In this document: piece after piece, positions 32,601-35,600 of the stretch | Layout: each line of letters opens with the position of its first letter | How positions within the stretch are numbered: the stretch's first letter is position 1 | Origin: Escherichia coli | GTDB taxonomy: Bacteria > Pseudomonadota > Gammaproteobacteria > Enterobacterales > Enterobacteriaceae | DNA: 64,000 nucleotides | Strand: one strand, 5' to 3' | Assembly: GCF_029227855.1 (NCBI RefSeq) | Contig: NZ_CP074356.1 | Made by a program: the position numbers and the translations under genes | The notes under the pieces: model-generated | Told to the model about the DNA's origin: nothing | Database searches by the model: none | Seen by the model: only the letters and a program-made list of their open reading frames with translations

Positions 32601-35600
32601 TATCCTTCACCTCAATATACAGACTGGTTGTCTCGCCTGCGGAGACTGTATCAAAAAGTGCATGTAGCAAAGTGAGGTGTGTCGTAGACGCATCAGCATT
32701 GACATTAATTGATGTGCTAAGCGTGGAGCTACCATTTTCCAGACTGGCCTCAACGGTATCTGGTCTCGCTCCTGATTCTATCGAGGAGCGGGTATTGGTA
32801 TAAGTGACGGTAGCCTTACCCTGTTCGTTCGTTACGGCTTGGCCGCCATTCGTCATTTCGGCAGAGTTTGTTCTGCTGGTGAAGTTCACAGTCACACCTT
32901 TCACCGGAAAGCCATTATTATCAACGACTGTGGCGGTAATGACGCTGCCGGTGCTGTTCTGCGGGGTACCGGCGAATATGCTGTCTGGGACAGGCGTCAA
33001 CTCGATAATTTTTGCCGCCGCTGTGTCGCCAATAAAATGCACAGTTTTGTTGTCGCTGGCACCAGTATTAGCCAGTGATGCAGTAACAGTCTGCTCACCA
33101 AAGGCAACGCCTGCGAGAGTGGCCTGCGCGATGCCAGACTCATTGGTATTACTTTCCCCTGGGGTCAGGGTGAGGCCTGAAGAAGCTGTGCTGAATGTTA
33201 CCGGAAGATTGTTCACCTCATTGTCGAACTGATCTTTGACCGTTGCAGTTAGCGTTGCGCTATCGACGCCATTACCTGTTATCTCATTTTTTGATATCTG
33301 CAGGACAACCTGAGCCGAGGTTTTGTCCGCCACAAACGTTACCGGCTGCGAATCACTGGTATTGTTATTACTCAGCGTTACGGTAACCGTATGCGTGCCC
33401 GCTTTTTTGCCTTTGAGGGTGACATGCGCTTCGCCATTGGCCTGAGTGATGGCAATACCGTTATTTTCGAGGGTAAAGTTTGCCGCAACGTCCTGTGGCA
33501 TGGTGAAGTTCACCGTTATTCCCGCCACCGGATGATTCGACGGATCTTTCACCGTTGCCGTCAGCTGCACGCTGTCGCTGTTATTCGTCACCACCTGTTG
33601 AGCAGGGATATTCAGCGTGACCTGCGCGTTGCTGGCATCGGGCGCAATATTGACTGTCTTCGTATCGTTGTTGCCGTTAGGCAGTGTGGCTTCGGCTGTA
33701 TGAACACCCAAAACCGTGCCCTTAAGGGTAACTTCAGCAACACCACTGTCGTTTGTATTGCTCGTGCTCTGACTAAGTTGTGTATCAGCCGGGTTAGTAC
33801 TAAAGGTGACCGGTAGATCTATTACTACGTTATCAAAAGGATCTTTCACTGTTGCTGTCAGCGTTGTCTCATCCACGCCATTCCCAATGATTTCCGCTTT
33901 CGAGGTTTGCAGAACGACAACTGCGCTGTCCTTATCCGCCACGAATGTGACTGGCTGCGCATCGCTGGCATTATTGTTACCCAGCGTTGCGGTAACCGTA
34001 TGCGTGCCCGCTTTTTTACCTTTGAGCGTGACATGCGCTTCCCCATTGGCCTGAGTGATGGCAATACCGTTATTTTCGAGGGTAAAGTTTGCCGCAACGT
34101 CCTGTGGCATGGTGAAGTTCACCGTTATTCCCGCCACCGGATGATTCGACGGATCTTTCACCGTTGCCGTCAGCTGCACGCTGTCGCTGTTATTCGTCAC
34201 CACCTGTTGAGCAGGGATGTTCAGGGTGACCTGCGCGTTGCTGGTATCGGGCGCAATATTGACTGTCTTCGTATCTCTATTGCCGTTAAGCAGTATGGCT
34301 TCGGCTGTATGAACACCCAAAACCGTGCCCTTAAGGGTAACTTCAGCAATACCGTTCTCATTAGTATTACGCGTGTTCAGACTCAGTTGCGTGTCTGCGG
34401 GGGAGGTGCGGAAGACTACTGACAGATTTTTAACCACGTTATCAAAAGGATCTTTTACTGTTGCTGTCAGCGTCGTCTCATCCACGCCATTCCCAATGAT
34501 TTCCGCTTTCGATGTTTGCAGAACGACAACTGCGCTGTCTTTATCCGCCACAAACGTCATTGGCTGTGTATCGCTGACATTGCTGTTAGCCAGACGAGCC
34601 GTGATCATATGCGTGCCCGCTAACGTGCCGGTCAGGGAGGCGATTGCAACCCCGTTACTATCCGTCATGCCTTTTCCGCCGTTACTAATCGAGAACCGAC
34701 TTGCGACGTCGTTTGGCACAGTGAAGGTGATTTCTTTATCTTTTAGTGGGTTGCCATTTTTATCCTGCAAGGTTGCAGTCATATGTTGCGGAGCTGTGTT
34801 GGTGACGGTGATATCACCTGAAGGCACACTGAGGGTCAGGGCAGCAGTACTTTGATCACCGATAAAATTCACCTGTTGATTGGCCTGGGAACCAGAGCTC
34901 ACAGAGGCCGTAACTCTATAATCACCGTTTTTTAAACTGGTCAGCGTAGCTGTGGCGATCCCGTCGTGGCTATTCACTTCGGTTTGGCTCAGTTTCGCCT
35001 CTGCTGAATTAACATTGAAGGTGACCTTGACGTCATTGAGCAGGTTGCCTTTTGCATCCCGGACTGTCGCGGTCATTGTGGCGCTGTCATTGCCGTCAGC
35101 GACCACTTCATTTTTCGACTTCTGCAGATCAACCTGTGCGGTACTTGAGTCACCGACAAAACTGACGATTAACGTTTGTTTCACGCCATTTTCAAGGGTG
35201 ACTTCAACCGTGTTGTCTTCCTGCTTACTACTTTTCAGATCAAAAGTCGCCAGACCATTAACATCCGTTTTTGCGGTGTTTTGATTGTTGAAGGAAGTTG
35301 CCGATCCGTTTAATACCGCAAACGTGACGGTATGATCATTGATTGGGTTGCTTCCCTCATCAGCGACATTGACCGAGACGGTGTTTGCTGCATTCTCATT
35401 GGCGAGCACACCATTATTGCTGGCAGATAATGTCGCAATTTTCGCTGACTGCGGGTTGGCGTCGATGATAAATCCAGCGGTATGCAAATCTTCATTCCAG
35501 TTTTGCATTAACAGCTTCGCAGTAAGCCCACTGCCTTTGGTATAGGCGGTATAGGTCGCCTTATAGACGCCATCTGCGGTTTCTTTCCAGTCAGTAGTGA

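Follow-up and report, generated by a model that had tools for sequence, protein, structure and literature searches.

Is the tandem repeat within the adhesin gene yeeJ of Escherichia coli the product of a recent duplication, or an old array whose copies are kept alike by recombination, and how does it affect the length of the encoded protein? These questions are raised by a stretch of 64,000 nucleotides (nt) from the E. coli contig NZ_CP074356.1, below referred to as the window, in which the long (UMN026-type) variant of yeeJ occupies positions 29674..37656 of the minus strand and encodes an inverse autotransporter adhesin of 2660 amino acids (aa; 7983 bp). The reading that I favour, with a probability of roughly 0.85, is that the stalk of YeeJ contains an old in-frame array of a two-domain Big_1 module, in which recombination between the units partly homogenises the copies and occasionally adds or removes units.

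The repeat unit and probable exchange between its copies

Self-alignment of yeeJ with BLAST yields one tandem repeat, 33188-34012 against 33797-34621, with an offset of 609 bp and 85% identity over 827 columns, along with a weak match at an offset of 1218 bp (69%). A separate repeat-finding run gave 33323-33622 against 33932-34231 at 94% identity, also with a spacing of 609. Tandem Repeats Finder did not detect the repeat, because its period of 609 bp exceeds the 500 bp that this program handles at most. With the domain boundaries taken from the protein, the order from the N- to the C-terminus is b0, a1, b1, a2, b2, a3, and one unit consists of an a-type domain (99 aa) followed in frame by a b-type domain (104 aa), amounting to 203 aa. 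All parts of the array are encoded on the minus strand. Unit 1 (609 bp, 33934..34542) comprises the Big_1 domains a1 (34246-34542) and b1 (33934-34245), to which a custom hidden Markov model (HMM) assigns the envelopes 1039-1137 and 1138-1241, and unit 2 (609 bp, 33325..33933) comprises a2 (33637-33933) and b2 (33325-33636). Upstream of unit 1 lies b0 (34543..34854), an older b-type paralogue without exchange with b1, while the array ends in a3 (33025..33324), a diverged a-type Big_1 domain that makes up half a unit. Ungapped, a3 is about 52% identical to a1 and a2; BLAST matches it to a1 over no more than the initial ~216 nt, with 69% identity, and a3 together with the next domain shows 45% identity to a1b1 at the protein level. 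Two open reading frames (ORFs) on the plus strand within the repeat, 33907-34422 and 34325-34855, are unannotated and without a Pfam match, and were dismissed as antisense noise.

The first-pass annotation, which was made from the letters of the window alone, had described a repeat of Big domains inside a yeeJ with a 2660-aa product, and self-BLAST, Pfam and the coding sequence (CDS) all agree with this; the position that it gave, 33340-34560, deviates from the actual unit borders by no more than about 20 bp. Its two near-identical units of about 606 bp are indeed a tandem pair, but the period is 609 bp, and near-identity holds for only about three quarters of the unit. Likewise, the 'diverged third' unit is a genuine diverged copy, though not a whole unit, as only the half-unit a3 is present.

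An in-register comparison of units 1 and 2 gives 90.5% identity, with mismatches at 58 of 609 sites that are strongly clustered. A 93-bp patch in domain a (nt 106-198, corresponding to 34345..34437 in a1 and 33736-33828 in a2) accounts for 31 of them, and the 51 nt at the end of domain b (nt 262-312, corresponding to 33934..33984 in b1 and 33325-33375 in b2) for 11. Outside this patch and tail there are 16 mismatches in 465 nt, equivalent to 96-97% identity, and the longest perfect identity between the units extends over 176 bp (34043..34218, with its partner at 33434-33609).

In order to place these differences, eight long alleles from complete genomes were compared: those of the window, O157:H7 F8797, KE55, H1, CREC-629, O145:H28 12E115, strain 148 and 2017-19-1CC. 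All eight contain the same pair of units. Orthologous copies are 92-99% identical, whereas the paralogous pairs a1/a2 and b1/b2 reach 84-87% and 91-94%, respectively, and 29 sites distinguish unit 1 from unit 2 in every one of the eight alleles, with 20 of these sites in the a patch and 8 in the b tail. Synonymous (dS) and non-synonymous (dN) divergence between the units, estimated per segment according to Nei and Gojobori, shows the same partition. The a patch (nt 106-198) has a dS of 3.18, which is saturated, and a dN of 0.23, and the b tail (nt 262-312) has values of 1.84 and 0.08; for the rest of a they are 0.105 and 0.027, and for b nt 1-261 they are 0.083 and 0.01. Between alleles, the same region gives a dS of 0.09-0.16 and a dN of 0.009-0.03. 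The dN/dS of the a patch is about 0.07, which indicates an old divergence under constraint and speaks against positive selection on this segment.

The eight alleles vary in both units at 32 corresponding sites (at 27 of them with the same two bases), while 8.2 would be expected (hypergeometric P=4.5e-15). The control pair b0/b1 has 4 such overlapping sites against 4.1 expected (P=0.62). The shared polymorphisms point to gene conversion between the units, and the near-identity of the unit outside the patch and the tail would then be due to this exchange. The simplest reading of these patterns is an old duplication of which the copies appear to be still exchanging sequence, by gene conversion or by unequal crossover, except in two diverged islands.

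Length classes of yeeJ in complete genomes

The gene in the window is the orthologue of yeeJ in E. coli K-12, both by chromosomal position and by identity. Its neighbours are a glycosyltransferase-9 gene and shiA at one end and tRNA-Asn and mtfA at the other, which matches the K-12 order, and on the two sides of the length difference discussed below its nucleotide identity to K-12 yeeJ is 97.6% and 95.9%. The surrounding ORF and its translation extend over 29674-37731 on the minus strand; the CDS of 7983 bp and 2660 aa is the one given by the Prokaryotic Genome Annotation Pipeline (PGAP) in NZ_AP045174.1 (E. coli JNEC-KY178), which is 100% identical over yeeJ. This allele is the long variant of the UMN026 type that is known from the literature. 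Martinez-Gil et al. (2017, Sci Rep 7:11326; PMC5595812) reported that yeeJ-MG1655 and yeeJ-UMN026 differ by a 906-bp fragment with three Big domains, which they described as 'a repeated section', and they cloned and expressed the UMN026 variant and found long and short yeeJ to be no different in biofilm assays. The gene, the locus (tRNA-Asn/mtfA to shiA) and the 906-bp difference of their pair are identical to those of the window and K-12, with 7983 vs. 7077 bp and three extra domains according to the custom HMM. As the long yeeJ variant, the feature is thus already known in outline. The 609-bp unit structure, the chimeric domain of K-12, the alleles with one and three units and the exchange between copies are not part of the 2017 description; they come from the present analysis and go beyond the literature. 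Two more recent papers name yeeJ without taking up its length variants.

I searched 5,426 complete E. coli genomes with a query of 2001 bp, and 2,915 of these contain the yeeJ region. At least 80% of the query is covered at one place in 1,245 complete genomes; the full-length long matches all span 1999-2001 bp in a spread sample of 60 rows, and 70 records match the region at 99% or more, with M7424 and S1-SRB-02-B, which stem from other studies, at 100.0%. Most other genomes have the K-12 arrangement, in which the span is 1095 bp and thus 906 bp shorter. Read off ranked BLAST tables, the classes among the 2,915 genomes comprise about 1,600 genomes of the K-12 type (-906 bp), about 1,200 with two units, 48 records with one unit, at least 29 records with three units, and a few that are disrupted by insertion sequences (IS) or otherwise damaged. 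A comparison of yeeJ lengths across strains, as the first-pass annotation had proposed, gives in-frame classes of 2358, ~2457, ~2660 and ~2870 aa.

The short form is best understood from its junction. Nucleotides 1-3209 of the K-12 gene align to nt 1-3209 of the window gene, and K-12 nt 3187-7077 to window nt 4093-7983. The 906 bp that are missing from K-12-type yeeJ correspond to 33542..34447 (minus strand) and hold b1 and a2 in full, preceded by the C-terminal portion of a1 and followed by the N-terminal portion of b2. The K-12 junction is situated at a 23-bp imperfect homology that encodes LTATVKD, located at 34448..34470 in a1 (minus strand) and at 33542-33564 in its partner b2; the sequences are CTGACAGCAACAGTAAAAGATCC in a1 and CTGACGGCAACGGTGAAAGATCC in b2, identical at 20 of 23 positions. 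Perfect homology at the junction does not exceed 8 bp, which would predict a RecA-independent route for this deletion. At this point the K-12 protein passes from KAEIIGNGVDETTLTATVKD directly into PSNHPVAGITVNFT, so that an a-type N-terminus is joined to a b-type C-terminus. The hybrid domain, which consists of a1 from nt 1 to 84-95 and the rest of b2, has 3 mismatches in 312 nt when compared with 2017-19-1CC and CREC-629, and the custom HMM scores it as a full Big_1-like domain, with three domains fewer in K-12 in total. The most divergent allele sampled, LF4-1 (91.6% identical to the window gene), has identical K-12-type breakpoints. It appears far more parsimonious to see K-12 as a shortened long allele, with a deletion of 906 bp between the LTATVKDP motifs that a1 and b2 have in common, than to see the long form as a lengthened K-12.

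A form with a single unit, b0-a-b-a3, was first indicated by fragments in a protein homology search, mostly truncated Shigella and E. coli sequences with no full-length proteins among them. In complete genomes it is represented by the 48 records mentioned above, with a span of 1389-1392 bp in a single piece. Among those inspected, the CDS is intact in TR01 and GN06156 (7374 bp) and in Santai and A10 (7398 bp), and frameshifted or split in FT130, ACN002 and E47. The Santai-type allele is common to about 21 records from varied hosts and sources, and the one-unit class is therefore not an assembler artefact. When the one-unit alleles are modelled as the first x nucleotides of unit 1 joined to unit 2 from x onwards, using the sampled long alleles as parents, ACN002 is obtained from H1 with a crossover at unit nt 324-329 and E47 from 2017-19-1CC with a crossover at nt 268-310, both with 0 mismatches, and TR01 (O157:H7) from F8797 with a crossover at nt 78-86 and 1 mismatch. 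With their different crossover intervals, these alleles represent at least three independent unit losses. All mapped crossovers of this kind lie within homogenised parts of the units, and three of the four mapped intervals, one of them that of type I (unit nt 194-566), are bounded by the patch in a and the tail in b, in the tract that holds the 176-bp run. TR01 is itself a recombinant, since its 5' 2.8 kb is 1.4% diverged from O157:H7 NE1127 and its 3' 4.1 kb is identical to it, and the switch point coincides with the out-of-register a1/a2 crossover that took out one unit.

The reciprocal product also exists. A query with the reciprocal hybrid, i.e. an a2 patch combined with a b1 tail, gave full-length matches to three-unit alleles, such as those of GF60 and AST240, in which the CDS is intact and measures 8616 and 8613 bp, respectively, encoding 2871 and 2870 aa. 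The arrays of both consist of unit 1, the hybrid with its a2 patch and b1 tail, and unit 2, the hybrid being the reciprocal crossover product, and the corresponding span of 2607-2610 bp is found in a single piece in at least 29 records. A synthetic three-unit query was unable to separate the classes, because in genomes with two units the same stretch of the subject can be aligned to it more than once, whereas the hybrid unit and a real three-unit allele could do so as queries. Among complete genomes, a synthetic four-unit query found no single-piece match, which is weak evidence against alleles with four or more units. The two-unit allele of Res13-Lact-ER07-18 has the composition that is expected after loss of a unit from a three-unit array. 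In O145:H28 RM12761 and RM13516, 850 bp are deleted out of frame, from b1 nt 165 to a3 nt 94; this is either a real pseudogenising event or an error common to two apparently related assemblies, as their record lengths and coordinates are near-identical.

Several partial matches looked like further length classes, and turned out to be insertions of IS1203, IS3 or IS1, or truncations. The CDS of CREC-629, which is 606 bp shorter, is due to a truncation of the 3' end by ISEc52 that is unrelated to the repeat. Mobile elements often inactivate yeeJ: besides the cut in CREC-629, IS1203 is inserted at different sites in ERL06-2503 and O157:H7 NE1127, and ETEC4071 is without the N-terminal part.

Proposed recombination between units and its alternatives

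The anatomy of the array, its classes of alleles, the mapped crossover intervals and the traces of exchange are all observed, and from them I infer a molecular route of non-allelic homologous recombination between units, which may be RecA-dependent or proceed by slippage, and which would drive two outcomes. Gene conversion would keep about three quarters of the unit almost identical, with the 93-bp a patch and the 51-bp b tail remaining anciently diverged, and in-register unequal crossover would occasionally remove or add a whole unit, giving rise to alleles with one, two and three units (2457/2465, 2660/2666-2668 and 2870/2871 aa, respectively). A separate event at short homology, between the LTATVKDP-coding stretches of a1 and b2, would have deleted 906 bp and produced the K-12 allele of 2358 aa. 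All of these events keep the reading frame and the domain boundaries, and the stalk would therefore become two or three immunoglobulin-like (Ig) domains shorter, or two longer, with the barrel and the tip unchanged. The notion of the first-pass annotation that recombination can vary the length of this adhesin is thus borne out, as one-, two- and three-unit alleles as well as the 906-bp deletion of K-12 are present in complete genomes.

The 176-bp perfect run, and a dS of ~0.1 over about three quarters of the unit, could also be read as a sign that one lineage lately copied a 609-bp segment, which has had little time to diverge. This is what the first-pass annotation had proposed in calling the duplication recent, and it is hardly tenable: dS is saturated in both the patch and the tail, the same copy-specific differences, among them the 29 fixed sites, recur in all eight long alleles (O157:H7 and O145:H28 included), orthologous copies are closer to each other than paralogous copies are, and the structure is found in about 1,200 genomes. 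A different origin of the two islands, in which a diverged donor has overwritten the patch and the tail or diversifying selection has acted on them, rather than both being relics that escaped conversion, would fit the sharp borders between identical and ~60%-identical sequence, and alleles such as that of TR01 show that yeeJ is visibly recombinant. I nevertheless consider such an origin improbable, as the low dN/dS and saturated dS of the patch argue against diversifying selection, self-BLAST turns up no sequence elsewhere in the gene that could have donated either patch type, and both types are conserved across alleles.

The order of events could likewise be reversed, with the short K-12 form (or the one-unit form) being ancestral and the long form arising by insertion or duplication, and the lack of an outgroup as well as the prevalence of the short form, which is the commonest class with ~1,600 of 2,915 genomes, speak in favour of this polarity. 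However, the K-12 domain is a fusion of an a-type N-terminus and a b-type C-terminus at nt 84-95 that disrupts the alternation of a and b, so that an exact insertion of the C-terminal part of a1, b1, a2 and the N-terminal part of b2 would be needed, and the a-type C-terminal half is without a close source in K-12. Moreover, the one-unit alleles have either an a1-type or an a2-type patch and not an intermediate one, and in three cases the allele corresponds to a sampled long allele from which one unit has been taken out; a reversed polarity is for these reasons very unlikely. As to the window itself, tandem repeats with identical runs of 176 bp can mislead short-read assemblers into false duplications or miscounted repeats, and the first-pass annotation had accordingly called the locus a likely hotspot of assembly collapse. 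For the window there is virtually no chance of such an artefact, since the same 2001-bp structure is found in about 1,200 genomes (1,245 cover at least 80% of the region, and 70 records match at 99% or more) and at 100% in the independent assemblies of M7424 and S1-SRB-02-B, and since the UMN026 variant was cloned and expressed (PMC5595812). The units differ at 58 sites and should therefore be separable even by short reads. For a few singleton one-unit records, collapse is possible.

Some of the observations weigh against an old array that still gains and loses units. The singletons TR01, ACN002 and E47 resemble exactly what an assembly collapse would produce, and may possibly be just that. 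The 29 'fixed' sites are fixed in the eight sampled alleles only, and the allele of Res13-Lact-ER07-18 breaks the pattern. The class sizes do not come from a per-genome census, and the number of three-unit alleles is a lower bound. A scan of contigs for an outgroup yeeJ outside E. coli gave just a 221-bp, E. coli-like fragment, and the age of the duplication is therefore relative only to the allelic diversity of E. coli, with polarity assigned by parsimony. Finally, the only published assay of length showed no functional difference (PMC5595812). The 221-bp fragment is the contig NZ_GG667598.1 in the assembly of Corynebacterium striatum ATCC 6940; with 99% protein identity to E. coli YeeJ, it is almost certainly an E. 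coli contamination of that draft assembly.

The adhesin stalk and the surroundings of yeeJ

YeeJ is a type Ve protein with an N-terminal beta-barrel and a passenger of tandem Big_1 and invasin-D3 domains. The barrel domain IAT_beta (PF11924) is found at residues 143-418 with 373 bits (cut-off 22.3), Pfam recognises 16 Big_1 and 17 Invasin_D3 stretches in the passenger, and the custom HMM counts at least 18 Ig-like domains. LysM (15.6 bits, cut-off 20.9), Intimin_C (22, cut-off 27) and Invasin_D4 (23.9, cut-off 27) score below their thresholds, albeit in the expected places, and a periplasmic LysM domain and a C-terminal C-type lectin-like tip have been reported for YeeJ (PMC5595812). At the 3' end of yeeJ (window 29674-30058, encoding the C-terminal ~128 aa), many alleles remain unmatched over the first 385 nt of the plus-strand query, their matches beginning at 386, and the CDSs of these alleles exceed the usual length by 18-24 bp (8001/8007 and 7398 bp), which points to an alternative variant of the C-terminal lectin-like tip, probably independent of the repeat.

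An AlphaFold model of a1b1, with a predicted local distance difference test (pLDDT) score of 94, consists of two all-beta Ig-like domains, and a Foldseek comparison with the PDB gives intimin D0-D1, InvE, invasin, InvD and FdeC as the best matches (top hits 6tpl, 5n40, 1cwv, 5ldy and 4e9l, with a TM-score of 0.72 for 4e9l). The fold, the tandem rod layout and the IAT_beta barrel are common to YeeJ, intimin, invasin, InvD/InvE and FdeC; however, the identity of YeeJ to the solved domains of these proteins is 16-27%, and with at least 18 domains it has far more of them.

The number of repeats in repeat-domain surface proteins of staphylococci and streptococci varies by unequal recombination. These adhesins resemble yeeJ in that homologous recombination between tandem copies adds or removes entire folded modules in frame, which alters the reach of the tip, but yeeJ differs in having just one to three units of 609 bp that are ~10% diverged, with variant alleles at ~1-2% each. 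Invasin has five domains and measures about 18 nm, and on the basis of these dimensions one unit of yeeJ should change the predicted reach by roughly 7-8 nm. Only 48 records (one unit) and at least 29 records (three units) of ~2,915 fall outside the two main classes, and this rarity therefore points to occasional recombination rather than rapid switching. A phase-variable contingency locus, in which the number of short units changes frequently and turns expression on and off, is not what these data suggest, as the unit measures 609 bp, every change preserves the reading frame and alleles are shared within clonal groups.

It is conceivable, although rather doubtful, that the array functions as a slow 'length dial', in which the gain and loss of units and the K-12 deletion are selected to set, by lineage or host, how far the lectin-like tip projects past O-antigen, capsule or other surface structures. 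A fitness effect of stalk length would be in line with the fact that three losses of a unit, one gain and one 906-bp deletion, which makes five or more independent events, have all left intact proteins, and the unconverted patch may then mark a functionally distinct surface of a1 and a2. The idea of masking was raised by the authors of the 2017 study (PMC5595812), and the natural length variants are available for testing stalk length behind O-antigen or capsule.

For annotation it matters that the 2660-aa protein is a genuine common allele, for which the name YeeJ is preferable to 'Ig-like domain-containing protein', and that the K-12 reference allele would be a derived, deleted form with a chimeric Ig domain. 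With at least four in-frame length classes at one site, studies of gene presence or single-nucleotide polymorphisms that are mapped on K-12 will mishandle the region, and short-read assemblies may miscount the units. The locus would be a clean natural case in which the folded-domain modules that build the stalk of an adhesin undergo concerted evolution and unequal crossover. The current understanding of inverse autotransporters is left unchanged.

Adjoining yeeJ, the gene for a glycosyltransferase of family 9 (window 28360-29412) is intact here; it is a pseudogene, with an internal stop or a frameshift, in the K-12-like record, strain 148, TR01 and Res13-Lact-ER07-18, and is disrupted by IS1 in ETEC4071. 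A small island at 13034-23358 adjoins a tRNA-Asn gene and contains two frameshifted integrase genes, a 4.2-kb gene for an RHS element core protein (18572-22753) and, following the latter, a gene for a tetratricopeptide repeat (TPR) protein (22810-23358), which may be the immunity partner of the RHS protein. The window has four tRNA-Asn genes, at 8801, 11210, 13034 and 37969-38044, and its first part (1-8745) is occupied by propanediol-utilisation genes (pduCBA, pduF, pocR), a cobalamin riboswitch at 4408-4582, and cobUST.

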